Under the pieces are notes generated by a model. It made no database searches. It saw only the letters and a list, made by a program, of their open reading frames with translations, and had not been told where the DNA came from. A program made the position numbers and the translations under genes. Positions 4,203 through 59,643 of a stretch of 64,000 nt of DNA are shown in pieces. The stretch is from an uncultured virus (IMG/VR IMGVR_UViG_3300026154_000024) (taxonomy: Duplodnaviria; Heunggongvirae; Uroviricota; Caudoviricetes). The DNA lies in IMG/VR virus record IMGVR_UViG_3300026154_000024. One strand, given 5' to 3'. The first letter of the stretch is position 1; every line of letters begins with the position of its first letter.

Positions 4203-4253
4203 GAAAATTCGTAAAATATTTGGTATTTTTGTTTTTCTTTGTACCTTTGCAAA

Positions 4254-4347
4254 GTGGGATAGAAAGGAGTAATTAACCTTTTGAAAGGGTATGCCGAAAG
4301 CCTTGCCCACCTTTGCAATTTTTCGGCTTATTAAATTTCGGAAAAAA
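4254..4347 (+). ncRNA. structured endonuclease-leader RNA, copy 1
   Basis: GTGGG-ATAG-AAAGG/CCTTT-TGAA-AGGGT(ATGCCGAAA)GCCTT-G-CCCAC; loop GCCGAAA complementary to TTTCGGC 4321-4327 and TTTCGG 4336-4341. Confidence 0.75.
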
Positions 4348-5304
4348 ATGCCCAACAAACTAACAATAGAAGAATTTATATCACGTGCTCGCAAGATACA
4401 CGGGAATAAGTATAATTATTCTAAAGTCAAATACATAAATCGTACCACAAAGGTTTGCATAATTTGCCCCAAGCATGGAGAATTCTATCAAACCCCAAAT
4501 GGGCATTTTTATATGGTTGTCAACAATGTTTTTTTGACAGAAATAGAATCAATAAAATAGCAAAAAAGAAAACATCAAAAGAATTTGTTGATAATGCTAT
4601 TGGTATTCACGGAGATAAATATGACTATTCTAAAACGGAATATATAAATGCAAAAACAAAAGTTTGCATAACGTGTCCAGAACATGGAGACTTTTGGCAA
4701 TTGCCTTATATTCATACAAAAGGCATTGGTTGTCCTACTTGTGGATATGAAAAAGCGTCTAAGAGCAAAACAAAAACAACAGAAGATTTTATTAAAAAAG
4801 CAAAATCTATTCATGGTGATAGGTATGATTATTCTCTTGTTGATTATAAGAGTTGTTTTTCCAAAGTTCAAATTATTTGCCCTATTCATGGAATTTTTTT
4901 TCAAACTCCTGATAGGCATTTAAGTGGCTGTGGATGCCCAGTATGTAACAATTCAAGGGGGGGGAAAAAGAATAAATGATTTTCTTGAAACAAACAGGAT
5001 AAAAAATATAAAACAATACAGCATAATAAATGACATTCTTTTCTGTTCAAATAAAAGGTTTTTGGTCGATTTCTATTTGCCAAGCAATAATATTATTATT
5101 GAATATAATGGCATACAACACTACAAACAAAAAGAATATTTTGGGGGCGACAATGCACTTGAGCAACAACAAGAGCGCGATATGGCTTTGCGTCAATATT
5201 GCAAGGAACACAATATAAAACTTATCGAAATACCATATTGGGATTATGACAATATAGAAACTATACTTAATAAAGAATTAGACATAAATAAAGTTAAAAA
5301 GTAG
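4348..5304 (+). pseudogene. homing-endonuclease-like gene: three HG(D/N)(K/R)Y(D/N)YS..CPxHG zinc repeats + C-terminal PD-(D/E)XK nuclease; split by two compensating 1-nt frameshifts
   Basis: Repeats continue across three ORFs; VDFYLP..IIEYNGIQHY..LIEIPYW at C-term; indels in T-run ~4506-4510 and G8 run 4957-4964. Confidence 0.8.
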
Positions 5305-5370
5305 CGGTGTTTTTTGAATATTGCAAATAAATGACTATCTTTGCACCGTTATAATTTAAAAAATAAATAT

Positions 5371-6069
5371 ATGGAAGTTTCAATGAATAACAGGCAAAGC
5401 AAAAAACCAACAAATGCTCAACTTGAAAAGCGTTTAAAGTGTGCTCTTTTGCACATTGACAAAACAAAGGATACAAAGTCAATCTACTTTGACGATAAAG
5501 GTCTTAGGCTTACAATTAACGAAGATTGGGCAATAATTGCAACTGGTGCTCATCAACATGTGTTTAGAAGTGTAACTGTTGCAGGCATAAGCAGACCGTA
5601 CCTTTACACACAAAAGTTTGTAGAAATTGCGCTTGCTAATGATAGCACGTGGAAAGATGAAAAGGGGCAGGTTAGGCGTTCTTATTCCAAGTTATTTGAA
5701 ATCATTAAAAACAAAGAGGATAAGACCGAGTACAATATGTGCTGGTATGTTGACCTGTGGCTTAACAACATCTTTTCTCCGTTGTATTCTATCGACGAAA
5801 CCGAGATTGCATCGTTCCTTGTCTATGAACAATACTTGCACAACGTTGCGCGTTCACAAGTCATTCTTTCGGAACATACCGAGGATATGACTAACCTGCA
5901 ATTCGTTGATGCACTTATCGACAACGAAAAGAAATACTTGGAGGGCATGAAAGAGGCGGTCATCATTCACAAAAAGACCGACGAGGAAAAGACCCAAGAA
6001 GAGGTTGCGGCCTTACAAGAGGCTATGGTGCAAGAAAACCAAGGGGAGGGCGTAGGCGATGGAAAATAA
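5371..6069 (+). CDS. hypothetical protein
   Basis: Long ORF after promoter 5336; ATG start chosen over TTG. Confidence 0.7.
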   Translation: MEVSMNNRQSKKPTNAQLEKRLKCALLHIDKTKDTKSIYFDDKGLRLTINEDWAIIATGAHQHVFRSVTVAGISRPYLYTQKFVEIALANDSTWKDEKGQVRRSYSKLFEIIKNKEDKTEYNMCWYVDLWLNNIFSPLYSIDETEIASFLVYEQYLHNVARSQVILSEHTEDMTNLQFVDALIDNEKKYLEGMKEAVIIHKKTDEEKTQEEVAALQEAMVQENQGEGVGDGK

Positions 6070-6214
6070 TCAAGAAAAATGGGTTAGTGTTTCTACGCTT
6101 GCAAAAAGACTTGGCTGTACAAAACAAACAATATACAACCACCTGAAGCAAGGAAAGTACGAATACAAAACATTTGAAAGAGGGTCTATGCGAGGTTTGC
6201 TTATTAAAGTATGA
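6059..6214 (+). CDS. small HTH DNA-binding protein (excisionase/AlpA-like)
   Basis: WVSVSTLAKRLGCTKQTIYNHLKQGK; read manually. Confidence 0.7.
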   Translation: MENNQEKWVSVSTLAKRLGCTKQTIYNHLKQGKYEYKTFERGSMRGLLIKV

Positions 6215-6218
6215 TAAA

Positions 6219-6644
6219 ATGGCTTACAAAGTAAACAATGCAGTAAAACGAAACATCAAGAAAAAATTTAAAGATGCCGTTAATGGCTATCTTTTGGAAC
6301 TATGCAATATGTGGGAACTTGACCCCACAAATGGCTGGTTTGTTGGAGACGAAGTCGGTGACGTTTGGTGCTATGGTGACAATATCTTTATTGGTTTCGA
6401 CGATATGCGCTACGTTGTAGAGAATGATGTTTCTTACGAAACCTACCAAGAATGGCAGGAATATTGTGTTTGGGCTAACGAATTTAATCAAGACACACCA
6501 AATCTTAACGCATGGTGCAAGGGTTGTCCGCGTGTTGATAAAGAAACACAAAAGAAACTTTCTGCCATGAAAAGCGATTTGATTAAGGCGTGTTTAGACG
6601 AAAAGGAAAAAATCAAGAACAATGGCAAGGAAAAGCCGTATTAA
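6219..6644 (+). CDS. hypothetical protein
   Basis: ORF in operon, MAYKVNN start. Confidence 0.7.
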   Translation: MAYKVNNAVKRNIKKKFKDAVNGYLLELCNMWELDPTNGWFVGDEVGDVWCYGDNIFIGFDDMRYVVENDVSYETYQEWQEYCVWANEFNQDTPNLNAWCKGCPRVDKETQKKLSAMKSDLIKACLDEKEKIKNNGKEKPY

Positions 6645-6819
6645 AACAAAATCGAGAAAGCGCGTTAAGGGTAAGGTAAAACTTACCCAACGTGCTCGTA
6701 TTGTTGAAAAGAACGATGATACAAGGGTAGCAAGACGTGATACGTTAAAGAAAGCACCTGTAAAAACCGTGTTACCTACGAATGGTATCACGTTTAAGGT
6801 TAAAATTCGCAAGAAATGA
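6622..6819 (+). CDS. small, highly basic protein
   Basis: 65 aa K/R-rich. Confidence 0.55.
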   Translation: MARKSRIKTKSRKRVKGKVKLTQRARIVEKNDDTRVARRDTLKKAPVKTVLPTNGITFKVKIRKK

Positions 6820-7237
6820 ATTTGGTTTATAAATCAAGAATAGGACTGATACGCTTTGCAAAAGTGTTTCCGTTCTTACTTTGCTTTATTGTACTTATTT
6901 CTTTATCAGAAACGCTATTTGCTTTGGTTATAAGCGACTTTGTTGTGTTCGATGGTGGTATTACACTAAACACTCCTTTGCGTGGTTTATAGGCGAAAAA
7001 TACGAAATTGGAATCTATTCGGTATTATTAGCAATATTTTTGTCTATCGCTTTTGAAACTTGCATTTGGAATAAAACAAGTGAAGTTTATTTGCTTGTAT
7101 TACTAAAACAACAAACGTACTTTCCAACAATAGAACTATACATCGAATACATCTATGCAATTTGCATTGCAAACATACTTATTTGTACCTTATTTTGCTA
7201 CAAAGGAATAACTATTTTCTTAAAAAGTGCAAAATAA
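6816..7237 (+). pseudogene. multi-pass membrane protein with a 1-nt frameshift at ~6977
   Basis: MNLVYKSRIGLIRFAKVFPFLLCFIVLISL... joins FAWFIGEKYEIG... if one T is added to the CCTTTG run. Confidence 0.55.
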
Positions 7238-7271
7238 TTTGGTATATCAAAATATTGTGCGTACCTTTGCA

Positions 7272-7710
7272 TCGTTGAAACAAGGTAGCCGACTTGTAGT
7301 AAACGGACTTATTAGATACATTGTTAGGCTATAAGCCGAGCCAATATATATAAAATTTCCAACAGGTGCGGCTACATCGGTTGGAATTTTTGTTTGTACA
7401 TGGTTCGGCTTTTCTTGTTTTCAACAAAAAGACATAGGGTTCAAACAGTGCAGTCCCGTTGAGGTTAGCCGCTCATATATAAAACTGCTTCTTTACACGA
7501 ATATATGTCTGATTAGATAGGTTGGTAGAGGTAAAATCCCGCAATGTCCGAAACCTGACAACGGGTGCTTATGCCGAAAGGTTAAACCAATATCAATGAA
7601 ACACAACACGGAAAGCATACGTGTCTATGAAAGGCAGTAACCCGACTACAAAGGCTGTAAACGTAGAAACAATCGGGTGAAACACGCTTATTTTATACAT
7701 AAGCATAAAG
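7272..7710 (+). ncRNA. candidate large structured non-coding RNA / leader
   Basis: ORF-free, starts right after promoter 7262-7269; nested long-range helices and complementary loops (see findings). Confidence 0.55.
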
Positions 7711-7774
7711 GTTTTAGTGAAAGTAATAATTGAAATATTTAAATCACAAATAACAAGAAATAACAAGAAAGGTT

Positions 7775-10700
7775 ATGACAGAACAAGAAGTTAAAGATTA
7801 CAATGCGTTTTTGGAACAAAAAAAACAAACTCGCATCGAAAGCGGATTTCAAGTCGAAGAAAGCGAACTTAATCCGATGTTGTTTGATTTTCAAAAGTAT
7901 TGCGTCCGACGTGCATTGCAATCTGGAAAGTTTGCTATGTTCGAGGACTGCGGTTTAGGTAAAGAACAGCCTTATAGCGAGCCAGTTTTAACGCCTAATG
8001 GGTACGCTCTTATGGGCGACTTAAAAGTTGGTGACTTTGTTGTTGCAAGGAATGGTAAACCGACACGAATTCTTAACATCTACGAACAAGGAGAAAAAAA
8101 CGTTTACCGTGTAACGTTTAGTGACGGAACATCTACAAGATGCGGGCTTGAACACTTATGGAACGTCAAGACGCTTAACGACGTAAGCCGTAAGCGTGGT
8201 TACAGAACTTTGCCGCTTAAAGACATTATGAAGAATTACGTCACGGAAAGAATTGATAATAGATACCCCGACAAAAAGAGAAAGGCGTACAACTATTCTG
8301 TTCCTGTTTGTGACGCAGTTGTGTTTGCTAATAACGGCGGCGTAACAATTAATCCGTATATCCTTGGCGTTATAATTGGTGATGGGTGTATATCACAACA
8401 CTCCGTAAGTATTAGCAAGCCGAATCGAGAATTAAGACAAAAGGTTCAGTCACTTGTTCAGAATGGCGATATTGTTACAGACTTTGCAAGCGATGGCATG
8501 ACTTTCAGAATCTCAAATAAAGTAAGCAATCAGCCGTCGTGGACTAAATGTGAGTTAGAAAAGTTGGGTTTGATGGGAAAACTCTCAAAGGAAAAGTTTA
8601 TTCCAAATCCGTACCTTTACGCTTCCGTACAAGACAGAAAAGACTTGCTGCAAGGACTTGTTGACACTGACGGGCATATAGTTTCCGACGGGTTGATTGA
8701 GTATTCAACGGCATCATCGCAACTTTGCAACGATGTTTCTTTCTTAGCCCGTTCGCTTGGTTACATTGTGCATGTCGTTGCACGCAAGTCGTATTATAAA
8801 AAGGGCGGCGAAATGTTTGACAACTACCGTATCTATATGTACAACGACAAAGCAAGAAAACTCAAAAGCATTACAAACATTGAGTTGGTCGGCAAAGAAA
8901 AGTGCCGTTGCATCTATGTTGATGACACAGAGCATTTGTATATTACAAACGACTTTGTTGTGACGCATAACACAGTTCAGCAGTTGGAATGGGCTAACAA
9001 AGTGGTTAATCACATCAATAAGCCCGTGTTAATACTCGCTCCTTTGGCGGTTGTTTCACAAACCATCAAAGAAGGCGAAAAGTTTGGTTATAATGTAAAC
9101 GAAGTTATAGACCGCGATGATGTGTTTACGCCAAATGAAAACTGTATTTACATAACCAACTACGACAACATGGAACACGTGGATGCAAAAGCATTTGGTG
9201 GTATTGTGCTTGATGAAAGTTCTATCCTAAAGAATTTTCAAGGAAAGACAAGAACAAAACTTATCGAGGATTTTAGAAACACACCTTATAAATTGGCTTG
9301 TACTGCAACACCCAGCCCAAATGATACAACGGAAATTTGCAACCACGCAGAGTTTCTTGATGTTATGTCACGAAACGAAATGCTTGCGATGTATTTTGTG
9401 CATGATGGTGGTAGTACAAGCGAATGGCGGTTAAAAGGTCACGCAATACAAGCGTTTTGGGATTTTGTATCAACGTGGGCTGTAATGCTTAACAAACCGT
9501 CTGATATTGGATATAATGATAGCGGATATTCTTTGCCACCGTTGAATGTGGTGCAAGAAATTGTTGAAACTCCCAAACGTGACAATGGGATGCTATTTAA
9601 CACTATGGCCGTAAACGCTACCGATTTTCACAAGGAATTGCGCGAAACATACGAAATACGTCTAAATCGTGTTGTAGAGATTGTGAACGCACACCCACAA
9701 GAAAACTTTATCATTTGGATTGGTCAAGACAACGAGGGTAAATATCTGCGTGACCGTTTGCCAGATGCGATAGAGGTAAAAGGTAGTGATAGTAAGGCAT
9801 ACAAAAAAGAAAAGTTACTTGGTTTTGGTCGTGGTGAATTTCGCTTGCTTATTACCAAACTAAAGATTGCTCAATTTGGATTGAACTATCAAAATTGCCA
9901 TAACCAAATATATGCGTCTTTGGACTTTTCATTTGAGGCAACATATCAAGGCATACGCCGCTCGTATCGCTTTGGGCAGACCAAGAAAGTGAACATTTAT
10001 CTTATCACTACAGATACAATGCAAAACGTAAAAGATAGTTTTGATAAGAAACAAAAGGCTTTTGTTAGTATGCAAACATCAATGACGGAGGCGACAAATC
10101 GTAACATAAAAAACATATTATCATTAAAGAAAATGGAAACAACAAAACAATACACGTCCGACGTGTGCGATATTCGCCTTGGCGATTGTGTTCAACTTAT
10201 CCAAACAATACCAGACGAAAGCGTTGGGTTCTCGATTTTCTCACCTCCTTTTGCGGAACTTTATACCTATTCCGACAAATTAGAGGATATGGGAAATTCA
10301 AAGGATTACAATGAGTTTTTTGCGGCTTTCAAGTATCTTGTTAAGGAATTATACCGCGTGATGTGGTCAGGTAGAAACGTTGTGGTGCATTGCATGGATT
10401 TGCCTATTCAAAAAGGCAAGGAGGGTTACATCGGATTGCGAGATTTTAGTGGCATGATTTTGAAAGCATTTGAAGATGTGGGATTTGTTTATCACAGCCG
10501 TGTAACGATATGGAAAAACCCTGTTACTGAAATGCAACGTACAAAAGCACTTGGACTGTTGCACAAACAGGTAAAAAAGGATGCAAGCATGAGCCGCGTT
10601 GGCATCCCCGATTATCTTATGGTTTTCCGCAAAGATGGTGAACATCTACACCCAGTGCAATGCAACATTTCTGTAGATACGTGGCAAAAATACGCAAGCC

Positions 10701-11980
10701 CAGTTTGGATGGATATTGACTATGGTAACACGCTTAACGCACAAAGCGGTCGTGACGAAAATGACGAAAAACATATATGCCTTGCACAAGGAACACTTAT
10801 CCTTACGAAGCGTGGATACGTTCCTATAGAAAATGTTGAGATTGGCGACGAAACAATTACACACATGGGACGATGGCGCAAGATTGTGGCTAAGGCTAAG
10901 ACTAAAGAAAATGCACAAGTGGTCAAAGTGAATGCTGTCGGTGTTCCCAACTTGATATGTACTCCAAATCACAAACTATGGGCAAGAGAAGGAATTTTCG
11001 TAGGACGTGACAAACATTTTTCAACAAGCCCCAATTGGGTTGAGTCAAAGGATACAAAGGGAATGTACATTAACCAAAAACTACCAGATATTGTAGATAG
11101 TCCTATTACTGAGGATGAATGGTGGGTTATTGGTCGTTGGGTTGCCGATGGTCATATAGATGCTCGTGGGCATCAATTCTTTGTCTCAATTGGCGATAGC
11201 AAATTTGTCGAATTTAATAATCATGCAAGCAAGTTCATAGGTCATATATCTCATAACGACAAATGTAATTGCACGCAAATCGGGTTGGTAAATCTATCGG
11301 ATGATGCAAGAAACATTCTTTATAAATGTGGAAAAGGTGCAGAAAACAAGGTGATTCCATTTGAAATTATATCACTAAATCAACAACTTGCAAAGTCGTT
11401 TTTGGATGGATATTTATCTGGTGACGGTTGCAACATTGATGGTAAGATATACTTTTCATCTGCATCACGTTCGTTACTGCTTGGAATTTCTTTGATTGTT
11501 CACCGTGTTTACAACAAGCAAATGGCTATTTATGCGGGACGTGGCGAACGTGTCAAGGAAATACAAGGTCGATTGGTGAATTGCAAGCAAGAGTGGGTTG
11601 GTGTTCTTTCTCAAAACTACGGTTTTTCCAAATTTGATGAACAAGGTTGTTGGAAACCCATAAAAAGCATTGATGAACATGAAAATGTCGATGTTTGGAA
11701 TATAGAAGTAGAAGAAGACCATTCATACACCGCAGAAGGTTGTATTGTTAAGAACTGTCCGTTGCAACTCGAAACGATTGAACGGTCTATTACCCTTTGG
11801 TCAAATGAGGGTGATACGGTTCTTACGCCTTTTATGGGTATTGGCAGCGAAGTGTACGAAGCTGTAAAACTAAAGCGTTTCGGCATCGGATTTGAATTGA
11901 AAGATAGTTACTTTGCTGAGGCTGTTAAAAACGTCAAGTCAATGGAAATGCAAGTAAAACAAAAAGGGCTTTTTGTTTGA
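7775..11980 (+). CDS. SNF2/SF2 helicase fused to beta-class N4C/N6A DNA methyltransferase, containing two inteins
   Basis: Walker A GLGK|T, LDESS, TATPSPN, QGIRRSYRFGQ; MTase IFSPPF and VLTPFMGIGSE. Confidence 0.9.
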   Translation: MTEQEVKDYNAFLEQKKQTRIESGFQVEESELNPMLFDFQKYCVRRALQSGKFAMFEDCGLGKEQPYSEPVLTPNGYALMGDLKVGDFVVARNGKPTRILNIYEQGEKNVYRVTFSDGTSTRCGLEHLWNVKTLNDVSRKRGYRTLPLKDIMKNYVTERIDNRYPDKKRKAYNYSVPVCDAVVFANNGGVTINPYILGVIIGDGCISQHSVSISKPNRELRQKVQSLVQNGDIVTDFASDGMTFRISNKVSNQPSWTKCELEKLGLMGKLSKEKFIPNPYLYASVQDRKDLLQGLVDTDGHIVSDGLIEYSTASSQLCNDVSFLARSLGYIVHVVARKSYYKKGGEMFDNYRIYMYNDKARKLKSITNIELVGKEKCRCIYVDDTEHLYITNDFVVTHNTVQQLEWANKVVNHINKPVLILAPLAVVSQTIKEGEKFGYNVNEVIDRDDVFTPNENCIYITNYDNMEHVDAKAFGGIVLDESSILKNFQGKTRTKLIEDFRNTPYKLACTATPSPNDTTEICNHAEFLDVMSRNEMLAMYFVHDGGSTSEWRLKGHAIQAFWDFVSTWAVMLNKPSDIGYNDSGYSLPPLNVVQEIVETPKRDNGMLFNTMAVNATDFHKELRETYEIRLNRVVEIVNAHPQENFIIWIGQDNEGKYLRDRLPDAIEVKGSDSKAYKKEKLLGFGRGEFRLLITKLKIAQFGLNYQNCHNQIYASLDFSFEATYQGIRRSYRFGQTKKVNIYLITTDTMQNVKDSFDKKQKAFVSMQTSMTEATNRNIKNILSLKKMETTKQYTSDVCDIRLGDCVQLIQTIPDESVGFSIFSPPFAELYTYSDKLEDMGNSKDYNEFFAAFKYLVKELYRVMWSGRNVVVHCMDLPIQKGKEGYIGLRDFSGMILKAFEDVGFVYHSRVTIWKNPVTEMQRTKALGLLHKQVKKDASMSRVGIPDYLMVFRKDGEHLHPVQCNISVDTWQKYASPVWMDIDYGNTLNAQSGRDENDEKHICLAQGTLILTKRGYVPIENVEIGDETITHMGRWRKIVAKAKTKENAQVVKVNAVGVPNLICTPNHKLWAREGIFVGRDKHFSTSPNWVESKDTKGMYINQKLPDIVDSPITEDEWWVIGRWVADGHIDARGHQFFVSIGDSKFVEFNNHASKFIGHISHNDKCNCTQIGLVNLSDDARNILYKCGKGAENKVIPFEIISLNQQLAKSFLDGYLSGDGCNIDGKIYFSSASRSLLLGISLIVHRVYNKQMAIYAGRGERVKEIQGRLVNCKQEWVGVLSQNYGFSKFDEQGCWKPIKSIDEHENVDVWNIEVEEDHSYTAEGCIVKNCPLQLETIERSITLWSNEGDTVLTPFMGIGSEVYEAVKLKRFGIGFELKDSYFAEAVKNVKSMEMQVKQKGLFV
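7964..8971 (+). mobile_element. intein 1 (class 3-like, LAGLIDADG) in helicase Walker A
   Basis: GLGK|EQPYSEPVLTP...CGLEHLW...CRCIYV...FVVTHN|T; ILGVIIGDG and LQGLVDTDG. Confidence 0.88.
10778..11755 (+). mobile_element. intein 2 (class 1, LAGLIDADG) in methyltransferase KHI|CPLQ motif
   Basis: CLAQGTLILT...CTPNHKLW...VWNIEVEEDHSYTAEGCIVKN|C; IGRWVADG and FLDGYLSGDG. Confidence 0.9.
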
Positions 11981-12204: not shown

Positions 12205-12291
12205 CAACGGCATTTCAGTAACTTTTAGATTCATACTTGATAATAAATGAAGTTGTTTAGTGAAACGTTGTGAAACGGAGTAGCTTTTCTC

Positions 12292-12383
12292 GGAGGTGTA
12301 AACCTAATTGCTAAGGTAGCGGTCTTGAAAACCGCCAGTAGTCGTGTAACAGCGGCGTGTGAGTTGGAATCTCACCACCTCCT
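12292..12383 (+). tRNA. tRNA-Ser(TGA)
   Basis: GGAGGTG/CACCTCC acceptor, GCGGT-CTTGAAA-ACCGC, long variable arm, T arm GTGAG-TTGGAAT-CTCAC. Confidence 0.8.
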
Positions 12384-12390
12384 CAAAAAT

Positions 12391-12477
12391 GGAGAGTAAT
12401 GCTTGATGGTGATAGCGTCTACCTGCTAAGTAGTTCGTTCGTGGATAACGGATATGGTTCGATTCCATTGCTCTCCG
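12391..12477 (+). tRNA. tRNA-Ser(GCT)
   Basis: GGAGAGT/GCTCTCC acceptor, CTAC-CTGCTAA-GTAG, long variable arm, GGTTCGATTCC. Confidence 0.85.
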
Positions 12478-12488
12478 CAAAAAAGATT

Positions 12489-12559
12489 GGGAATCTGGTG
12501 TAACGGTTGCACGTTTGAATTTGGCTCAAAAGGAGGGGTTTCGACTACCTCGTTTCCTA
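12489..12559 (+). tRNA. tRNA-Gln(TTG)
   Basis: GTGT/GCAC D stem, TTTGA-ATTTGGC-TCAAA, GGGGT-TTCGACT-ACCTC. Confidence 0.75.
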
Positions 12560-12598
12560 CAAAAAAACGTTTTATTTTTTTTAATTCATAAAGAAAGT

Positions 12599-15843: not shown

Positions 15844-15890
15844 AATATGCAATTTTTGTTTGTTTACCAAAAAACATGTATCTTTGCAAC

Positions 15891-15984
15891 GTGGATAGTT
15901 GGGGGTCATGTCCCAATGACAAGAGTGTTCCGATGGCTCTTCCACGTTTTTCAATTCCATCGGAGTTTTAAACATTGGGAAAGT
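15891..15984 (+). ncRNA. structured endonuclease-leader RNA, copy 2
   Basis: GTGGA-TAG-TTGGG/CCCAA-TGAC-AAGAGT(GTTCCGATG)GCTCTT-CCAC; loop pairs with CATCGGAG 15958-15965 and CATTGGGA 15973-15980. Confidence 0.8.
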
Positions 15985-16788
15985 ATGGCAAGTACAAAAA
16001 AAAAGACTCTTGAAGAGTTTATTGCAGATGCAAGAAAAGTTCACGGTGATAAGTACAATTATTCGCTTATTACAGAATACGTAAACAACAAAACAAAAGT
16101 ACCAATCAAATGTAATCGTTGTGGTGAAGTGTTTTGGTGTAAACCTAACGTCCATCTAAACGGGTGCAATTGCCCTAATTGTTGGGCGAAGGAAAAGCCC
16201 CAGTTTGGCAAAAGAAAACTTGTTTACAAGGTCGCTACTTTAGATATAGATTTTGCAAGCAATGCGGATGATATAACACACAAAGCGTATGGTGTTTGGT
16301 ATAATATGTTACAGCGTTGTTATTATAAAAAATACCAAGAATCACACCCAACATACATAGGCTGTACAGTATGTGATGAATGGCTATATTTTTCAAACTT
16401 TCTAAATTGGTTTAAGAAAAACTACATAGATGGATATGTGGCTGATAAAGACTTACTTGTTTCTGGAAATAAAATATATTCCCCAAGCACCTGTTGTATG
16501 ATACCAAGCGAAATTAACGCAATGATTGTAACACGTCGTAGGAAAAGTAGTCGTTTTGGAAAAGGCGTATCAATAACACGAAAAGGTAGATTCGCAGCGT
16601 TTTTGGTAAAGCATAACAAAACTTATAATTTAGGACACTTTGACACAATAGAAGAATCGTTTGAAGCATATAAGCAAGGCAAAGTTGCTTATGTCAGAAA
16701 AGTAGCTGATGCCTATTTTAAGGACGAAAAAATAACAAAAGAAGTGTACGATGCACTTTATAGATATGAACCAAAGTTTAAAGATTAA
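15985..16788 (+). CDS. homing-endonuclease-like protein (HGDKYNYS zinc repeat + HNH-like core + AP2-like C-term)
   Basis: WYNMLQRCY, TYIGCTVCDEWLYFSNF, DKDLL..GNKIYSPSTCCMIP.EIN, LGHFDT.EE.F.AYK. Confidence 0.8.
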   Translation: MASTKKKTLEEFIADARKVHGDKYNYSLITEYVNNKTKVPIKCNRCGEVFWCKPNVHLNGCNCPNCWAKEKPQFGKRKLVYKVATLDIDFASNADDITHKAYGVWYNMLQRCYYKKYQESHPTYIGCTVCDEWLYFSNFLNWFKKNYIDGYVADKDLLVSGNKIYSPSTCCMIPSEINAMIVTRRRKSSRFGKGVSITRKGRFAAFLVKHNKTYNLGHFDTIEESFEAYKQGKVAYVRKVADAYFKDEKITKEVYDALYRYEPKFKD

Positions 16789-45866: not shown

Positions 45867-45916
45867 ATTACTTAAAAGGTTTTGGGTATGTTTAGAATAT
45901 TATGTATCTTTGCAAT

Positions 45917-46010
45917 GTGGATAGGGTGGTTTGGCCACCATCTGATAAGGGGCAAGTCTGTCGCCCCTTCCACAATTTCAATGACAGACACGATTAAAAG
46001 AACAGACAAT
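45917..46010 (+). ncRNA. structured endonuclease-leader RNA, copy 3
   Basis: GTGGA-TAG-GGTGG/CCATC-TGAT-AAGGGGC(AAGTCTGTC)GCCCCTT-CCAC; loop pairs with GACAGAC 45983-45989 and ACAGAC 46002-46007. Confidence 0.8.
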
Positions 46011-46841
46011 ATGACAAAAATGAAACCTTTGGCACAAGTGCTCAAAGAATTTAGAGGCGTTCACGGTGATAGGTATAACTACAAGGAAGTCTACGAATCC
46101 AATTATCACGGCAATAAAACTGTTATTTCTGTAATATGCAGAGCACATGGGGCGTTTCCTATAAGTGTTGGGAATCATCTAATTGGTCAAGGATGTCCTG
46201 AATGTGCTAAGATAAAACGCAGAATAAGCAACACTGGCAATGTGCGCAAAAGAACCAAACTTGTGTACGGTGTTGGCGTAAACGATTATAAAGAAAACAC
46301 AAAATACAACCATGTACATATACCATCTTATCACACATGGGGGCAAATGCTAAAAAGGTGTTATTCAAAAGAATTTTTAGATAAACAAACGACTTATCGT
46401 GGATGTTCTGTTTGCGAGGAATGGTGGTCGTTCTCAAACTTTAAGAAGTGGTTTGACGAGAACTATATCGAAGGGTACAGTTTGGATAAGGATATTTTAT
46501 TTAAGGGGAATAAAATTTATTCACCAGAAACTTGATGTTTCGTACCTAACGAGATAAATGTTCTATTGTGTAAGAATGATTCAAAAAGAGGCAAAATGCC
46601 AATTGGTGTTTGCGAAAGGAAAATGGTTAATGGATATAAATACGTTGCATACGTCAACAATAGTACCAAAAAACATTTCCATCTTGGGACTTTTGACACT
46701 CCAGAAGAATCATTTTACGCCTACAAGGTTGAAAAAGAAGCGTACATTAAAGAGGTTGCGCAATCTTATTACAACAAAGGGCTTGTAACCGAAAGAGTTT
46801 ATAATGCGCTAATGAATTACAATGTTGAAATAACGGACTAA
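46011..46841 (+). pseudogene. homing-endonuclease-like gene, paralogue of 15985-16788, with in-frame TGA at 46533-46535
   Basis: YSPET*CFVPNEIN aligns to YSPSTCCMIPSEIN; frame continues to 46841. Confidence 0.8.
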
Positions 46842-52836: not shown

Positions 52837-52843
52837 AAATAAA

Positions 52844-53452
52844 TTATCTTATATATTCAAACGTAAATCCATCTTTATTCGTCACTTTTCCTTTTAAGTA
52901 TTTATTGACTACGCCTTGAGTGTAACCAAGGTATCGTTCAGCATCCCGTTGGCTTGAAAATTTCTTAAAAAATATTCCGTTTTTATAAACGTTTATTGGT
53001 GTTGCATTTATTTTTTTAATGTTATCTATTTTCAATTGCATTAAAACAGGGTTGGTTCTTAAAGACATTTGTATTCCTTTACTTATATTTTTTCGTGCAA
53101 GTGGAAAGTTTGAATTTTCCTTGTTAGTACACCATCTTAGATTTTCAACACGATTGTCCGCACGCACACCGTTAATGTGGTCAATTGCATTTTTGCCATT
53201 TACCCTTTCTATAAAAGTTTCGGCTACGATTCGATGTACTAATACTGTCGCACCTTTGCCTTCCTTTTTGTTACAAAAATGCGTTGTTAAATATCCGTCT
53301 TTATTTTGATGTAACCTTTTAATATTCCCTCTTACAATTCGCAACGCACCTCTATTTGTGCGAACATATCTATCAATAGAACGAACATTACCAAGGTTGC
53401 TTACTTGATAGCAACCCTCCCAACCTTTTGCGTCTTTCCAAATTTCATTCAT
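52844..53452 (-). CDS. NUMOD4-HNH homing endonuclease (no RNA leader)
   Basis: EIWKD..GWEGCYQVSNLGNVRS; VHRIVAETF; IDHING.RADNRVENLRW. Confidence 0.9.
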   Translation of the reverse strand: MNEIWKDAKGWEGCYQVSNLGNVRSIDRYVRTNRGALRIVRGNIKRLHQNKDGYLTTHFCNKKEGKGATVLVHRIVAETFIERVNGKNAIDHINGVRADNRVENLRWCTNKENSNFPLARKNISKGIQMSLRTNPVLMQLKIDNIKKINATPINVYKNGIFFKKFSSQRDAERYLGYTQGVVNKYLKGKVTNKDGFTFEYIR

Positions 53453-54080
53453 TTGTTTTCCTCCATTCTTTTGTTTCTGCATCCCACGATATAACACCCC
53501 TACCATTGTTAAGCGTTACACTTGCACCGTCGGGGCGCGTGTCATCGTCGTAGCCGTCGGGAATGTGCTTGCCATCCCAATAGCCGACATACATATAGCA
53601 ATTATAGTATTCGTTCCAAGAAAGCGCACCATCACACATAGGTATGTAAACATTACTTTGTACCTCGCCGCGCCCAAGTTTCGACGGGTCATAAACGACA
53701 TTGTTGTTTCCGAATACGACGGTCATAAATATCTTATCGCGCAAATAACGTTCAAAGTCCTTTTGATATAGCAATTCACGGGTAGATACATACGCCTTGA
53801 TATGCGGCATCACATTTTGTTTCTCGACATCTGTAAGTTTCTTCCAATATTCCAAGGATTTCTTCTTGCTACCCTTGCGATTGTATGCTACCCAACATTC
53901 CTCGAACAGTTCCTTTCGCGGAGCGTCGGTACGAAGGAAATCCACTATTTCTACCATGACATCATACGGCACTGGGTCTGTGAAACAAATATCTTTTTCA
54001 CCAACCTCAACAAAACGAATATCATGCTTTTTGAGCAACTTTTCGATTTGTTCCCTTTGTTCAATAACTTTCAATTGCAT
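53445..54080 (-). CDS. replication-initiator C-terminal-like protein
   Basis: FEECWVAYNRKGSKKKS...WKKL..YQKDFERYL; upstream of primase-helicase. Confidence 0.55.
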   Translation of the reverse strand: MQLKVIEQREQIEKLLKKHDIRFVEVGEKDICFTDPVPYDVMVEIVDFLRTDAPRKELFEECWVAYNRKGSKKKSLEYWKKLTDVEKQNVMPHIKAYVSTRELLYQKDFERYLRDKIFMTVVFGNNNVVYDPSKLGRGEVQSNVYIPMCDGALSWNEYYNCYMYVGYWDGKHIPDGYDDDTRPDGASVTLNNGRGVISWDAETKEWRKTNE

Positions 54081-54100
54081 AATCTTTGTTGTTTAATATG

Positions 54101-55015
54101 TTAGAACAAACTTAATTGTATTGGTTCTTTCTTTTCTTTTAACTGCTCATTATCTGGCTTACGCCAATCTTCACGAATAATCTTAGGTACTGCATTTTCC
54201 CAAGAAACGCTGTGGTGCATACGCTTATGAAACTGCCCCATTTCACCTACCTTAACGCAAGACGGATTTGTAAGTACACTAAAGAACGATTTTACGTATG
54301 TACCATTTTCTTGATACATTTCAGTAAGTCCTCCTCCAGCCTTTTGTGTTACAGTTTGACGTAACGAACAGTCTGCCACGGTCATAAACAATGTTCCACG
54401 ACTCCCTTCTAATAAGTACGTATTTACATCATCGTTCATTCGGCCTATAAAGTGAAATGGTCTGTCAGTCTTGCAAAAAAACGCATTCATTATCTTCCTA
54501 TGCACACGCTCGCGATACATCGTACTTCCAAGACCTCCAATAAAGTCTCCATTTTGAGCAAATGCAACACATGTCGCACCTGATGTTTCCAAGAACTCCA
54601 ACATTTCATTTATTATTGCGTTCATCTTCTTTACATACACTTGCGACAAAGTACCATTCTTTTCAATTCGTGAAGAAAAAGCATCATAGTCATCATCAAG
54701 TTCAAGAAAATAGGTAAGGCCAAGTTCTTTTGCTATTTCAAAACAAGATTCACGTGCATATAAAACTGCATTTCTTTTACGTGGTATATCGCACGTTTCG
54801 CATTCCAAAGACTTCTTCAACTTGTCAAACACAACAATATGTTCTTCACCAAACACAGTCTTGTATTCCTCTTGTTGGTCATCTTCGTTGTCAATAATGA
54901 TATAATACTTTCCAGTATAACCACAATCCAAAAGTTCTTTCACAGTCTTTACCCCATGAGCCCTACCATGAGACAAAATAAGACAAGCAAAGTCATCTCT
55001 TATTTCGTTATTCAT
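54101..55015 (-). CDS. TET-associated (TAGT)/GREB1-like GT-A glycosyltransferase
   Basis: ILSHGRA, YFLELDDDY, GRMNDDVNTY, Q..GGGLTEMY, R.HH...W. Confidence 0.8.
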   Translation of the reverse strand: MNNEIRDDFACLILSHGRAHGVKTVKELLDCGYTGKYYIIIDNEDDQQEEYKTVFGEEHIVVFDKLKKSLECETCDIPRKRNAVLYARESCFEIAKELGLTYFLELDDDYDAFSSRIEKNGTLSQVYVKKMNAIINEMLEFLETSGATCVAFAQNGDFIGGLGSTMYRERVHRKIMNAFFCKTDRPFHFIGRMNDDVNTYLLEGSRGTLFMTVADCSLRQTVTQKAGGGLTEMYQENGTYVKSFFSVLTNPSCVKVGEMGQFHKRMHHSVSWENAVPKIIREDWRKPDNEQLKEKKEPIQLSLF

Positions 55016-55707
55016 AATCTTATGTTTTTTAATTCTTCTTTTGTGTTAAATGACTTTATAGCAATATCTTCAAATGGTAAAAGTGCAACTTCAATATTAG
55101 TTTCGTTCACCACATCAAGGAATTGCATTTCATTGTTATGCTTGTGAGTATATTCGTAAGTATTTGTGTCGAATGTCTTTGTGTGAAATTCGTTCAAATA
55201 ATAACGAATATATCTTAAATACCCAAAGAAAACACCAAAGTCGTGAAATCCATCTCCTTTAACCTCTCCATACTTTTTGAACTCAACTTTTACGCTGTTG
55301 TCGTTTTTAACGAGCCTTACGTATGGGTCGTGCTCAAAAGCACATGGTATTACAAGATATCTGCAATGTTCAAACTTGCTTTTTGTTTCTTTCAAAACTT
55401 CATCACAAAGCACACAATCGCCCCAAGCAATAAATACGTGGTCTGAATAGTTTGACGGTATTTGACTTAATGCTTGTAATACGGCATTGCCACAACCATA
55501 CCCACTTTTTATTGTAATGGTTTCGTAGTGTTCAAACCAATCCTTGTTTTGCTGAGAACAAACTACATAAACCTCATCACAATACATTGATAGGCATGCG
55601 ATGTTGTAATCAAGCAAACATACATCTCCAATCATCGACAATGCTTTGGGTCTTTCATCGTCAAAGCGTGTTTCTTTTCCTGCGCTAAAAATCAAGCCTG
55701 TTGTCAT
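55012..55707 (-). CDS. NTP-transferase (sugar/alcohol-phosphate nucleotidyltransferase)
   Basis: LIFSAGKETRF...PKAL, IAWGDC, SFNTKEEL. Confidence 0.85.
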   Translation of the reverse strand: MTTGLIFSAGKETRFDDERPKALSMIGDVCLLDYNIACLSMYCDEVYVVCSQQNKDWFEHYETITIKSGYGCGNAVLQALSQIPSNYSDHVFIAWGDCVLCDEVLKETKSKFEHCRYLVIPCAFEHDPYVRLVKNDNSVKVEFKKYGEVKGDGFHDFGVFFGYLRYIRYYLNEFHTKTFDTNTYEYTHKHNNEMQFLDVVNETNIEVALLPFEDIAIKSFNTKEELKNIRL

Positions 55708-55708
55708 G

Positions 55709-57382
55709 TTACAATACTTTTAGAATTATATTCGTTTCAATAACGTTTGCTACACGTATGTATTTGGCACAAGCATGGGCAATTTCGTAATCATTGCCAT
55801 AATCTTCTGTTTCGTCACCTATATAAAGGCAATCTTTTGGGTTTATATGATAAGCCTTAAAAATGTTTGCCTTGCTATTATTGCTTGCTACAATGTCAAT
55901 CGTTGTACGGCCAGCAGAAATGGCTTTCAATCCTTTTATTCCATAAGCCTTAAACATATATACATTAAGATATTGTAGCAACATACGACGTTCCAAAGCG
56001 GTAAATGGTTTCATTTTGTAACAAGACATAAAATCTTCGTTATTAGGTTTGCCATCAATGCCAAAACTATTATATAGACTTTTTTCGACAAATGATATTG
56101 CTTTCTTGTTTATCAAGTGTTTGCGAATAACAAATTTCTTATTCCCATCAACATATAACACAGAAGACGCATCTGCCCAAACATTGTTATGTATATTATA
56201 ACAACTATCCAATATTGGCTTGATTGCTGTTTTATAGTCATTGCCAGAAACAATTTGTATGTTCGGCCTTTGTGATATTGCTCTTATATTTTCATAAGAT
56301 ATTCTCACATTGTCTTTTGAATATATAGTGTTATCAAAATCCATCAACACGTGCTTATATGGCATTGTCCTCAAATGAAAGAACTCTTTGAATATTGCTT
56401 TAGCCAACAATAGAGGTTCGTGTTTCCCCTTGTTGTTTCCCATTGGATAATATGCCACGTCATATTTTGTGGACTGTTGGCATAGAATTGGGTCTGCATC
56501 CACGTTTTCTAAAACCACGAACTTTGACATATCAAGACCAAGATTAGACACGATGCTTATAAAATGATTGCTACCTATCCCTCTTGCATCTTTATCTTGT
56601 GTGCTATTCATTACCCAAATCTTAAAGGCTTTTGATTTGTTGATTGCGCGATAAAGACCACCGTATTCCAAAGTTGGATATATTGAACTCCAAAACGTAC
56701 CACAAGATATTATTATCATGTCAGCATCTTGCAATTCTTCAACTACAATAGGATTTATTGTGATAGGAGCATCCGAGTTATACAACAAACTTTCAATCCT
56801 ATCTTCATCGTTATCAAAACCGACAATGCTTGATTCGTCAACGAGAATAGAATTGTGGGTTTTTGCGCTCAGTTTTACGTTTTCAAACGAATTAAGGAGC
56901 ACGTTGTTCGGAATATCGAACTTTGTGCATATTATTTCATTGGTTGCCTCGTACCCCAACTCTTTATACATGGAAGAATACACAATATTAGCAATGGGAA
57001 AATCTTCAAATACTTTTTCTTTTGCACTTGGTGTTTCAAAGAAAGTCTTTGCCCATATATCAAAACACGACAATCCCCATTCATGCAATTTAGATACAAC
57101 AAACTCGTATTCCTCGCCTTTTGGTAAGTCAAAACGTTCATCAAAAAACGAAACGATATTGCCATTCAAACTTGCATTGTGAAATATCTTGTAGATGCGA
57201 GCATGATTTTTGCGTATATCGCTTACTCCTAATGTGTTGGTCAACGTGCGACAAAGACCTGTTGATTTTCCATCATCATAAGCATTAACGACAACCTTCA
57301 AGTCGATAGTTGGATAAAGGCCATATATACCCTTCAATAAGGCGTCATTGCCAGACCCTCCACTTAATATGATTGCTTTCAT
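55709..57382 (-). CDS. CofD/YvcK-like transferase fused to Cof-type HAD phosphatase/phosphomutase
   Basis: ILSGGSG, VVNAYDDGKSTG, GVSDIRK, ADMIIISCGTFWSSIYP; HAD VLMDFDNT, IVSG, GRTTIDI...SK, YIGDE...GNDYEI. Confidence 0.85.
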   Translation of the reverse strand: MKAIILSGGSGNDALLKGIYGLYPTIDLKVVVNAYDDGKSTGLCRTLTNTLGVSDIRKNHARIYKIFHNASLNGNIVSFFDERFDLPKGEEYEFVVSKLHEWGLSCFDIWAKTFFETPSAKEKVFEDFPIANIVYSSMYKELGYEATNEIICTKFDIPNNVLLNSFENVKLSAKTHNSILVDESSIVGFDNDEDRIESLLYNSDAPITINPIVVEELQDADMIIISCGTFWSSIYPTLEYGGLYRAINKSKAFKIWVMNSTQDKDARGIGSNHFISIVSNLGLDMSKFVVLENVDADPILCQQSTKYDVAYYPMGNNKGKHEPLLLAKAIFKEFFHLRTMPYKHVLMDFDNTIYSKDNVRISYENIRAISQRPNIQIVSGNDYKTAIKPILDSCYNIHNNVWADASSVLYVDGNKKFVIRKHLINKKAISFVEKSLYNSFGIDGKPNNEDFMSCYKMKPFTALERRMLLQYLNVYMFKAYGIKGLKAISAGRTTIDIVASNNSKANIFKAYHINPKDCLYIGDETEDYGNDYEIAHACAKYIRVANVIETNIILKVL

Positions 57383-57384
57383 AA

Positions 57385-57843
57385 TTACTCCTCCTGCTTG
57401 TTTTCGTTATTCTTTGTATTGCGCCATTGATTTGAGTATTCGTCAGACGCCCAACGGCCTGTTGTACGTTGTATTTGTTCAATGTTTTGCGACAACTTAA
57501 CGTAACCATACTCAATAGCCTTATTGAAATCTATAATCACAAGAGCACTTTTTTCCATAAGACGTTGCATTTCCTTGCTTGCATGGGCATAGTAATCTGC
57601 AATTTTGGAATATCTAAAAACAATATGACGTGATGCCGCAAGTTTCAAAAAGTTCTTTTCTTGCTCGCTTACATCAGATGCTTCAATTTGTCTCATCAAA
57701 GCATTATACTTTGTCTTGTCATAAAGTTCACCAACGAAAGGACACTTTTCGCTTGGGGTGTATATTGGAGCACCCACCTTGTCTGTATAACGTTCATCTT
57801 TTTCTATTTGAACGTCATCAAAAACAAATAAATCTTGTTGCAT
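57385..57843 (-). CDS. conserved phage protein of the type usually adjacent to TAGT glycosyltransferases
   Basis: YT.K...PIY.P, FLKLAASRHIVF.YSKIADYYAHA, SALVIIDFNKAIE.GYV. Confidence 0.65.
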   Translation of the reverse strand: MQQDLFVFDDVQIEKDERYTDKVGAPIYTPSEKCPFVGELYDKTKYNALMRQIEASDVSEQEKNFLKLAASRHIVFRYSKIADYYAHASKEMQRLMEKSALVIIDFNKAIEYGYVKLSQNIEQIQRTTGRWASDEYSNQWRNTKNNENKQEE

Positions 57844-57848
57844 ATAAA

Positions 57849-58187
57849 TTACTTTATTTTTCTTTCCTGTTTATCTTTCAAAAGCAACGCATCAAGTTTG
57901 AGATAAGTACCAAGACGGGGCAAGTGGCGTATTCGGGAAAAGTCATCGTCATCGACACTTTGCCGATACGACTTGCCCAACATCTTCGGTATATCGGTTC
58001 TCGTGACACGTTCATCATTACAAAGCCTTGACAACATTTCAACCTCCTTTTCGTTGCCTCGCACTCGTGCCGACGGTTAGCCTTAATGGTTTCATCCACC
58101 CAAGGCAAAAGGCCGTGCTTTTTCTGCCATGTAGCGCAAGCGTGAAAGATATTCACGGCAAAGGGATTGTAATACGTCTTTAGCCAT
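57849..58187 (-). pseudogene. hypothetical protein split by two compensating 1-nt indels
   Basis: MAKDVLQSLCREYLSRLRYMAEK / HGLLPWVDETIKANRRHECEA / EKEVEMLSRL... Confidence 0.5.
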
Positions 58188-58196
58188 AGTAACACG

Positions 58197-58577
58197 TTAG
58201 AATGGTAGATTATCAGACCCGTCGCCGTCACCGCCGTTATTTTCGGGCAAAGGGTTTTGAGCGGTCTGTGTAGCGGCTTGTTGCGTTTGTTCTTGCGTAC
58301 CATCCAACCGTTGCGTTCTCCACGCTTGACATTCCGTGAACCATTTGCCTTGCCATTCGCGGCTTTCCACGTCAAATGAAACGTTGTAAGTACCGCCCAT
58401 GACGATGCCCATCTGCTTGAACTTATCCTCGCCCATTACTTTCATGGCCACTTTCTTAGGATATTGACCTTGAGTCTCGATGACAAACACTGTAGTCACA
58501 TATTCGTTTCCGTTCTTTTGAGAAACAAATCTTTGTGGCTCTAAAATTGCAATTACTTTACCTGTAATATCACTCAT
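58197..58577 (-). CDS. DUF3127 SSB-like protein
   Basis: ITGKVIAIL, QYPKKVA, VSFDVESREWQGKWFT..AWR, DNLPF. Confidence 0.85.
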   Translation of the reverse strand: MSDITGKVIAILEPQRFVSQKNGNEYVTTVFVIETQGQYPKKVAMKVMGEDKFKQMGIVMGGTYNVSFDVESREWQGKWFTECQAWRTQRLDGTQEQTQQAATQTAQNPLPENNGGDGDGSDNLPF

Positions 58578-58581
58578 AATT

Positions 58582-59196
58582 TTAATTATTTTGTTTATTA
58601 AACATAAATTCTTCTTTATAAAACCCACAAAAACCGTAACTTTTCCACTTTTTACCTCTTTCTTTGTTTTTTCGCATTATTGAACGGATTGTTTCTGGAC
58701 GAACACCAATAGCCCTTGCGCCATCTGCAATAGATTTGTATTCAGCAACAATGTTCATTTTTTCATCGAGACATAAAACTTCTTTTTCTGCACAAAAACG
58801 TCCTCTTTTTTTCATTGTTCTCAAGAACCTTTCGGTTGAATGGTTTTGTTTACAAGTTTTACGATAACGCTCAAGTCTTGTTCCATAATTTGTATTATAA
58901 CTATACGTACACCATTCCAAATTGTTTACACAATTATTTAATGGGTTTTCGTCCTTGTGATTAATTATCGGTAAATTTTTAGTGTTTGACACAAATGCCT
59001 CTGCAACCAGACGGTGTATTTGAAAGGATTTTTGCTTTCCATTCTTGACCAAATTAATGTGTAAGTAACCTTTTCCAAATTTTGTTGGTTTAAGTTGTTT
59101 AAATGAGCCGTCCGACCTTTTTATTCGCACATCGCCATAATTGCTTATTTGATAATTTTTATCAAACCCATCTATGTCTTTCCAAATTTCTTCCAT
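58582..59196 (-). CDS. NUMOD4-HNH homing endonuclease with NUMOD1-like C-term
   Basis: EIWKDI.GF..NYQISNYG; IHRLVAEAF; INHKDENPLNN.VNNLEW. Confidence 0.9.
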   Translation of the reverse strand: MEEIWKDIDGFDKNYQISNYGDVRIKRSDGSFKQLKPTKFGKGYLHINLVKNGKQKSFQIHRLVAEAFVSNTKNLPIINHKDENPLNNCVNNLEWCTYSYNTNYGTRLERYRKTCKQNHSTERFLRTMKKRGRFCAEKEVLCLDEKMNIVAEYKSIADGARAIGVRPETIRSIMRKNKERGKKWKSYGFCGFYKEEFMFNKQNN

Positions 59197-59292
59197 TTTC
59201 TTTCCAACTATTAAACGACTCCAACAAATTACAAAGTAGGAAGGGCTGTTGGATTGCCCTTGTCAATGGCTCATGACTTCCATCTATCCTAC
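59197..59292 (-). ncRNA. structured endonuclease-leader RNA, copy 4
   Basis: minus strand GTAGGA-TAG-ATGG/CCAT-TGAC-AAGGGC(AATCCAACA)GCCCTT-CCTAC; loop pairs with TGTTGGA (59220-59226) and GTTGGA (59203-59208). Confidence 0.8.
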
Positions 59293-59643
59293 GATGCAAA
59301 GTTACTTATTCTTTTTCATATTTCAAAATATTTGTTGTTATATATTGTTAAAACGGTAATCTACCGAAACTTACCAACGGCCAACGGAAATGTTTGTTGA
59401 TGTGTACCCATAGACACCCGAAAAGTAGATATGTGTACCACGATTGGCCGTTAAATCCGCCAAAACCGCATTTTCTTAGCACCTTTGCCATACATTTCAA
59501 GTTTTTTCTTGTTACGCTTTTGATTTGCCTTGTAACGCCGTGTTTGTTCACATGGCTTGGAAGGCCAAAGACATGTGCAATATCCGTTTGCATCGGGCTT
59601 GCGCCGCCAAAACTTACAATCCGAACATGGCATAGTGCCATAA

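Follow-up and report, generated by a model that had tools for sequence, protein, structure and literature searches.

Four nuclease genes in a 64,000-nt stretch of DNA from an uncultured virus of the Caudoviricetes (IMG/VR record IMGVR_UViG_3300026154_000024; the whole stretch is called the window here) are each preceded by a promoter box, a leader RNA with a three-way junction and a duplicated target for one loop of that RNA. The leader, which is about 95 nt long and resembles the Rfam family int-alpA (RF02996), probably throttles translation of the nuclease gene at its ribosome-binding region, a reading to which we give a probability of roughly 0.55. Each cassette runs in the order −7 box (TAnnTTTGC), four bases, stem P1, GAUAG, the P2 hairpin, UGAyAAG (UGAAAG in copy 1), the P3 hairpin with its 9-nt loop and the closing strand P1′. 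A short U-rich spacer, target 1 (T1), an A/U-rich spacer and target 2 (T2) lie 3′ of P1′, and the start codon is found 3–6 nt further on.

Judged by comparison of many copies, the leader RNA is real and widespread. A search pattern combining the promoter with two junction words recovered 34 loci from IMG/VR, and a second pattern lacking the promoter recovered 84. Because minimum-free-energy folding of single cores frequently gives a wrong fold, a rule-based parser and covariance models were used; model R1 was built from ten equal-length copies (alignment A3), and the broader model R2 from 49 model-aligned copies (alignment A4). With filters off, R1 returns exactly four copies on the window, namely copy 3 (79.4 bits), copy 2 (48.6 bits), copy 4 (34.8 bits) and copy 1 (25.3 bits, E = 5.6e-5), the next best match having 10 bits, and these are the four leaders whose boxes and junctions can be read in the sequence and which a first-pass annotation of the window had located. 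In A4, standard pairs occupy 98.3% of the stem cells, both sides change in 13 of the 16 stem pairs, and none of 500 shuffles reaches any of five covariation measures, in agreement with the covarying three-way junction proposed at that stage; when the 3′ partner is slid along as a control, pairing falls to 46–61%. The stem P1 comprises at least 5 bp, the base 5′ of GTGG covarying with the base 3′ of CCAC, and its lengthening past this extra pair is ambiguous, with A-rich and T-rich flanks. The conserved junction strands of the family are UAG, GAyAAG and CUU. Of 120 loci from a pattern scan of genome contigs, only L174, L192 (two copies) and L220 hold credible copies, the remainder being chance matches, and neither blastn of two leaders nor megablast of 15 kb found a match in the cultured-phage collection. 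Two variants with other junction letters (GGUAG, GACAG) were seen in a related phage record, L243 (G004:3497–3552) and L248 (G004:38690–38749), the former with a further 7-bp helix outside P1 that extends back towards the promoter.

Copy 1, on the plus strand, is the most degenerate leader of the four. Its −7 box, TACCTTTG(C), read from the sequence and fitting the consensus, lies at 4242–4249, and its core (P1-GAUAG-P2-UGAAAG-P3-P1′, 4254–4310), which is slightly degenerate and has a bulged G 5′ of P1′, contains the P2-loop palindrome TAATTA (4270–4275) and the P3 loop ATGCCGAAA (4291–4299); T1 is TTTCGGC (4321–4327) and T2 is TTTCGG (4336–4341), 6 nt 5′ of the ATG at 4348. Copy 2, also on the plus strand, has the box TATCTTTG(C) at 15879–15886 and the core at 15891–15945, with P1 lengthened by C15890/G15946. 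Its P2 loop, GGTCATGT, holds the palindromic core CATG (15907–15910), and its P3 loop, GTTCCGATG (15927–15935), faces T1, CCATCGGAG (15957–15965), and T2, CATTGGGA (15973–15980), the latter with two G·U wobbles in the pairing and its end 4 nt 5′ of the ATG at 15985. In copy 3 (plus strand), the box TATCTTTG(C) recurs at 45905–45912, followed by the core at 45917–45973, in which the palindrome TGGCCA (45932–45937) lies within the P2 loop TTTGGCCA and the P3 loop is AAGTCTGTC (45954–45962); T1, TGACAGAC, is at 45982–45989 and T2, ACAGAC, at 46002–46007, 3 nt 5′ of the ATG at 46011. Copy 4 is on the minus strand, with the box TAACTTTG(C) at 59297–59304, the core at 59236–59292 (P1 being GTAGGA/TCCTAC), the P2-loop palindrome TCATGA at 59271–59276, the P3 loop AATCCAACA at 59247–59255, T1, TGTTGGA, at 59220–59226, and T2, GTTGGA, at 59203–59208, 6 nt 5′ of the ATG at 59196. 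For these loops and targets, the first-pass annotation gave the right letters.

The −7 box of the cassettes is predicted to be of the Bacteroidota type, since it fits the consensus TANNTTTGY given in PMC12632263. Where 1.4 occurrences of GTANNTTTGCA would be expected, the window has 14, of which four belong to the cassettes; this word is the presumptive general Bacteroidota-type promoter word of the phage. The ten sites outside the cassettes (e.g., 3484, 7261, 18316, 34081, 34188 and 62291) are mostly at the starts of gene blocks.

For the P3 loop and its two targets, the parser delivered 90 instances, 50 of them distinct, from the collected loci and the window. In 28 of the 37 distinct P3 loops, the same leader contains two non-overlapping sites (Watson–Crick and G·U pairs; minimum lengths 7 and 6 nt). 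As a control, loops were set against the leaders of copies that have no 6-mer of the loop in common with them, and 51 of 1256 such mismatched pairs gave this result; the claim that each loop has a pair of matching sites within its leader, the downstream one at the ribosome-binding region, is thus borne out. More than 25 distinct loop/target sequences (barcodes) were found, and where closely related copies differ by one letter of the loop, both sites differ accordingly, as in AAGCCTATC facing GATAGGCTT and ATAGGT and, in a second example, AATCCTATC facing GATAGGATT and ATAGGA. Among transition-type departures from perfect complementarity in the paired registers, 55 are G·U and 8 are A·C, and three barcodes are found before differing nuclease architectures. 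Because of this G·U excess and the sharing of barcodes across architectures, pairing between RNA segments is favoured over a protein operator on DNA. As had been proposed, the RNA goes with more than one nuclease architecture. In the case of a DNA operator, the nuclease would act as its own transcriptional repressor in the manner of I-TevI and bind the two direct repeats together with their inverted counterpart in the loop of P3. I-TevI autorepression is indeed cited in the reference list of PMC3014915, and the repeats adjoin the promoter; however, one repeat sequence is shared by unrelated nuclease architectures, the departures are of the G·U-compatible kind, and the third copy always lies in the hairpin loop of a covarying RNA fold, and we consider such an operator very unlikely.

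The geometry of the leader is also constrained. P1′ is followed by T1 after 7–10 nt in 24 of 33 leaders, and this near-constant spacing suggests that the loop and T1 form an intramolecular pseudoknot. Measured between their starts, T1 and T2 are 17 nt apart in the median (range 10–32), and the ATG follows the end of T2 after 5 nt in the median (range −1 to 18). T1 is usually the stronger partner of the loop: of 44 leaders, 29 have the longer match at T1 and 6 at T2, with 9 ties, and the median duplex energies are −11.2 kcal/mol for T1 and −9.9 kcal/mol for T2. This preference for T1 and the palindrome in the P2 loop, discussed below, are features beyond those of the first-pass annotation.

Regulation of the nuclease would then proceed as follows. 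Each cassette would be a self-contained module, in which a Bacteroidota-type promoter and the leader RNA (about 95 nt) precede the gene of a homing endonuclease. The leader probably starts at the transcription start and folds into the three-way junction, whose 9-nt P3 loop would be able to pair with either of the two near-identical downstream sites, T1 about 8 nt past the junction and T2 with its end about 5 nt 5′ of the start codon. When paired with T2, the loop would hide the region at which ribosomes land, and we infer that little nuclease is translated from messages in this state. T1 may compete with T2 as a decoy and set the fraction of open messages, a role that is possible because T1 is nearer and stronger; alternatively, it may anchor a second RNA of a P2-mediated dimer, the other loop of which would cover T2. 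Silencing of the nuclease at translation, in keeping with one of the roles that the first-pass annotation had considered, appears to be the best reading.

Bacteroidota are not known to rely on the Shine–Dalgarno (SD) sequence, and the loop and its targets would therefore be free to drift together in these hosts, whereas the use of an SD sequence by other hosts fixes the loop as anti-SD. In SD-using lineages, GGAG lies inside T2 (L036, L090, L093 and the int-alpA copies). The variety of barcodes may thus reflect free co-drift of loop and targets in SD-less Bacteroidota and not necessarily a selected orthogonality, which had been suggested for the four window copies.

Several points weigh against a throttle that acts by covering T2. 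T1 is both nearer to the loop than T2 and stronger, so that in a purely intramolecular equilibrium the ribosome-binding site (RBS) would be mostly free, and the effect may be one of repression or of timing. Nine of the 37 distinct loops fall short of the threshold of 7 and 6 nt, and the finding of seeds permitted G·U pairs, which biases the G·U count mildly upwards. Alignment A4 was fitted to the model and is biased towards its structure, and the search patterns fixed GGATAG, TGAnAAG and the P1 core; because the patterns demanded these strings, their conservation within the set is by construction. Finally, the folding energies of single sequences are ordinary (z −0.5 to −1.1), and the case for the leader structure is therefore a comparative one.

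The loop of P2, which is 8–10 nt long, contains a palindrome. A Watson–Crick palindrome of at least 6 nt is present in 24 of the 37 distinct P2 hairpins (2000 shuffles gave 5.9 on average and never more than 14), and one of at least 4 nt in all 37; palindromes of at least 6 nt were found in 0 of 40 P3 segments. At least seven different perfect hexamers occur (TAATTA, TCATGA, TAGCTA, TGGCCA, TTGCAA, TCGCGA and TGTACA), together with TAATTG, which involves G·U. Because the axis of the palindrome is offset from that of the hairpin, by 0.5–1 nt in the 3′ direction in 34 of the 37 hairpins, the palindrome is not an extension of the stem. A covarying self-complementary loop of this kind suggests the element that a kissing-loop homodimer would need. 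It is conceivable, therefore, that the leaders, or short RNAs ending after P1′, homodimerize via P2 and regulate in trans in a c4-like manner, the two P3 loops of the dimer clamping T1 as an anchor and T2 at the RBS; repression would in that case rise with the dose of the RNA and be specific to each cassette. The excess of palindromes, their offset axis and the variety of hexamers are what such a dimer would predict, and two identical targets, of which the upstream one is stronger, suit an anchor and an effector site. Palindromes also differ between copies of one genome, but this within-genome difference is not significant (12 pairs). Moreover, the tight spacing of P1′ and T1 favours a pseudoknot within one molecule, the P2 loop is short and not palindromic (e.g., GACG) in about half of the canonical int-alpA copies, and a simple terminator scan calls no site at the leaders, by which a short terminated RNA is neither shown nor excluded. 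On balance, the dimer is possible but rather unlikely. A broader proposal, unlikely as well, is that the leaders constitute a natural set of programmable, mutually orthogonal riboregulators, in which the palindromic P2 loop would restrict each RNA to partners of its own kind, the homodimers would clamp anchor and RBS on the message of their own cassette, and each nuclease would be throttled by its own gene dose, whatever other cassettes the genome carries. As a separate observation, TCATGA occurs once in the whole window against about 20 expected from base composition, its sole site being the P2-loop palindrome of copy 4, and TAGCTA is absent where about 20 would be expected. The pattern resembles the avoidance of restriction sites, to which only the RNA loop of copy 4 is an exception.

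The first-pass annotation did not recognize the leader as a named family. In accordance with this, Rfam searches of the window at the gathering thresholds and at E values up to 10 gave only tRNAs and chance matches, none of them at the leaders, but the junction strands and the layout are shared with int-alpA. This Rfam family, typed as a small RNA (sRNA), has 71 positions and a gathering score of 35.8 bits. It is reportedly among the 224 candidates of Weinberg et al. 2017, the main text of which does not mention int-alpA. At E values up to 10, RF02996 matches neither the window, copy 2 alone, 20 diverse loci of the family, nor the related phage records G001–G005, and it gave no match on five proteobacterial genomes. 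On 151 genomes of Gammaproteobacteria it gave 19 matches, 18 of them above the cut-off, in 12 genomes. These true copies consist of P1 (8 bp), CUAG, a short P2, CGAAAA, P3, CU and P1′, with a P3 loop of 8–9 nt, ACACCCUU or AAACCUUCA; when read by eye, TGAAGG or TAAGGG follows about 8 nt past P1′, and then the SD sequence GAAGGGG or AAGGGG before the ATG.

The window family and int-alpA are thus arranged alike (P1, J1/2 with UAG at its end, P2, J2/3 with GAAAA or GAnAA, P3, J3/1 with CU, and P1′), and their junction strands can be written side by side as CC-UAG-[P2]-CGAAAA-[P3]-CU-GG for int-alpA and GGA-UAG-[P2]-UGAyAAG-[P3]-CUU-CC for the window family. In both, the P3 loop has two complementary stretches, one about 8 nt downstream and the other at the RBS, and some int-alpA P2 loops are palindromic (TAGCT, TGATCA, AGCGCA), unlike the short loops of about half of the canonical copies. 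In contrast to int-alpA, the window family has a shorter (5–7 bp) and AT-richer P1, a longer P2 with a palindromic loop of 8–10 nt, a highly variable P3 loop in place of the fixed anti-SD loop, and hosts with Bacteroidota-type promoters. One locus, L260, is matched by both models at the same place, by RF02996 below threshold (33.6 bits) and by R2 with 21 bits (E = 0.0013), and its letters (GGGAUAG...CGACAAG...CUUCCC) are as in the window family; it is the only one of the 19 RF02996 matches of this kind, R2 matching none of the other 18 and R1 none of the 19. Because the order of parts, the junction strands and the arrangement of loop and two sites are shared, we conclude from these sequence features that the window RNA is a divergent Bacteroidota-phage relative of int-alpA that lies outside the reach of the Rfam model and would function in a similar manner. 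What was known already is the catalogued and functionally unexplained int-alpA; what is new is a divergent form with a covarying palindromic P2 loop. The junction strands are kept from the prophage copies of Gammaproteobacteria to the phages of Bacteroidota while all stems vary, as would be expected if the invariant junction (UAG, GAnAAG and CU) were to bind a host factor or a small molecule and thereby shift the P3 loop between T1 and T2, in the manner of a riboswitch or of a switch that responds to a protein. However, conservation of a junction can be purely architectural, and a sensor RNA of this type appears quite improbable.

A further question is whether the leader belongs to its nuclease gene in some other way. 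For 43 distinct proteins encoded 3′ of distinct copies, many of them cut by the end of the locus, matches to HNH or homing-endonuclease families (Pfam or PHROGs) were found in 32, which links the leader to nuclease genes. Five more, on which PHROGs were not run, have only the zinc-repeat module of such nucleases, and one, outside the PHROG scan, is a near-copy of the protein of window copy 2; the other five are a replication initiator (L192, phrog_2509, 2.4e-57), a protein with a weak DnaB-like match (L010) and three unknowns. The adjacency of leaders and nuclease genes could mean that the leader is an RNA cofactor or guide for the nuclease, as the first-pass annotation had considered together with an antitoxin role. 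The leader is, however, common to at least three unrelated nuclease architectures, its distant copies precede the replication initiator and unknown genes, and the sequences complementary to the loop lie in the leader of the cassette and not in a target allele. Both roles are disfavoured by the copies before non-nuclease genes, and we regard a cofactor or guide as extremely unlikely. On the Saccharibacteria-labelled metagenome-assembled genome contig of L192 (860–1480, minus strand), two leader copies stand in tandem, 460 nt apart; the first, with the loop CTCCCA and twin TGGGAG sites, is followed by a 14-codon open reading frame, and the second precedes the replication-initiator gene.

The cassettes have their own promoters, unrelated neighbours and a variable presence, as expected for free-standing homing-endonuclease cassettes. 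Related complete phages of 82–85 kb carry two or three leader copies each, at other places, and in contigs of two public runs a different stretch of 422 letters connects 58563 to 59348 in place of cassette 4 (58564–59347); because these contigs replace it whole, its promoter, RNA and nuclease appear to have been swapped as one unit in relatives. The run matches to the window are assembled contigs only, with shares of at most 0.32, and those of RNA-labelled runs are small and partly DNA.

The gene of copy 1 (4348–5304, plus strand), for which zinc repeats and a PD-(D/E)XK nuclease had been proposed, does have multiple zinc repeats, but it is split over three frames (4348–4560, 4455–4979 and 4924–5304), and its nuclease part matches HNH and homing-endonuclease PHROGs (phrog_681, phrog_559 and phrog_9084). 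Copy 2 precedes an intact gene (15985–16788, plus strand; 267 amino acids) for a protein with a zinc repeat, an HNH-family core (phrog_953, HNH endonuclease, E = 9e-65) and a weak AP2 match (E = 0.005). The gene of copy 3 (46011–46841, plus strand) is of the same family but is broken by an in-frame TGA (46533–46535) at the position of a Cys in copy 2, and that of copy 4 (58582–59196, minus strand) is intact and encodes a NUMOD4 and HNH_3 homing endonuclease of 204 amino acids. Two of the four nuclease genes, those of copies 1 and 3, are thus damaged, with their leaders retained. The R1 scan of the window found no leader RNA at the fifth HNH gene (52844–53506, minus strand), as had been noticed before. 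Elsewhere in the window are a transposase fragment at its edge (16–561, phrog_506), an RtcB-type RNA ligase (1429–2571, phrog_1075), a protein of 1401 amino acids with helicase, methyltransferase and terminase-like PHROG matches (7775–11980) and a cluster of three tRNAs (12292–12560), the first of which (12292–12383), whose variable arm is long and whose anticodon loop, when read by eye, has UGA, is recognized by Rfam and not by ARAGORN.

If the proposed throttle is correct, an orphan Rfam family and its hitherto undetected relatives would gain a testable mechanism, in which a loop alternates between the RBS and a second site that serves as decoy or anchor. The Bacteroidota-phage branch would be the most informative, because its more than 25 co-drifted loop/target sequences are free of the SD constraint and provide natural compensatory-mutation evidence that is unobtainable from the anti-SD versions. 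Free-standing homing endonucleases would travel as modules of promoter, RNA and gene, and the variable loops, targets and palindromes could be ready parts for the control of translation in Bacteroides.

A literature search, which did not cover the supplement of Weinberg et al. 2017 or the alignments of PMC10690425, either of which may bear on the matter, found no paper on this leader or on the design of one loop and two sites. In PMC10690425, a catalogue of candidate RNAs from IMG/VR, the entries DNAVirus_8377, DNAVirus_8080 and DNAVirus_6591 are uncharacterized and lie at most 25 nt 5′ of HNH_3, NUMOD4, AP2 and GIY-YIG genes; DNAVirus_8377 has 105 nt and 88 sequences, mostly from freshwater and with Bacteroidetes hosts, and RNIE terminators are flagged in DNAVirus_8377 and DNAVirus_6591. 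The main text of the catalogue mentions neither HNH nor a three-way junction. Compared by their table descriptions only, the three entries may overlap with the window family.

The cores of the hammerhead, twister and pistol ribozymes do not fit the junction strands, and the Rfam search gave none of them. The c4 RNA of phages P1 and P7 and the CI RNA of P4 have loops that match duplicated targets, one of which is at an RBS. Both are RNase P substrates, and c4 has an Rfam entry, according to PMC5499578 and PMC2864571. The model of this entry (RF01695) gave no match on the window, on copy 2 alone or on 20 diverse loci, and the leaders are therefore not assigned to c4. They are similar to the c4 and CI RNAs in that a small structured RNA derives from the leader of the transcript that it would control, with loops matching duplicated targets, but in the window family both targets are downstream and one loop is used rather than two. 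In addition, c4 and CI control antirepressor or immunity genes, whereas the window leaders precede nuclease genes.

In kissing loops of the type of the human immunodeficiency virus type 1 (HIV-1) dimerization initiation site, a 6-nt palindrome lies in a hairpin loop of 9–10 nt with purine flanks, and the likeness of the P2 loop to them is an analogy of sequence design only. A functional parallel is that of the T-even homing-endonuclease genes. According to PMC3014915, RNA structures that sequester the RBS limit the translation of I-TevI, mobE (of Aeh1) and segB, and hiding of the RBS to limit translation of a selfish nuclease is the feature that the window family would share with these genes and with I-TevII and I-TevIII. 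The T-even structures are plain hairpins formed locally, in many cases with a late promoter inside them, whereas the window family has a conserved three-way junction, a loop facing two duplicated sites and a second loop that is self-complementary.

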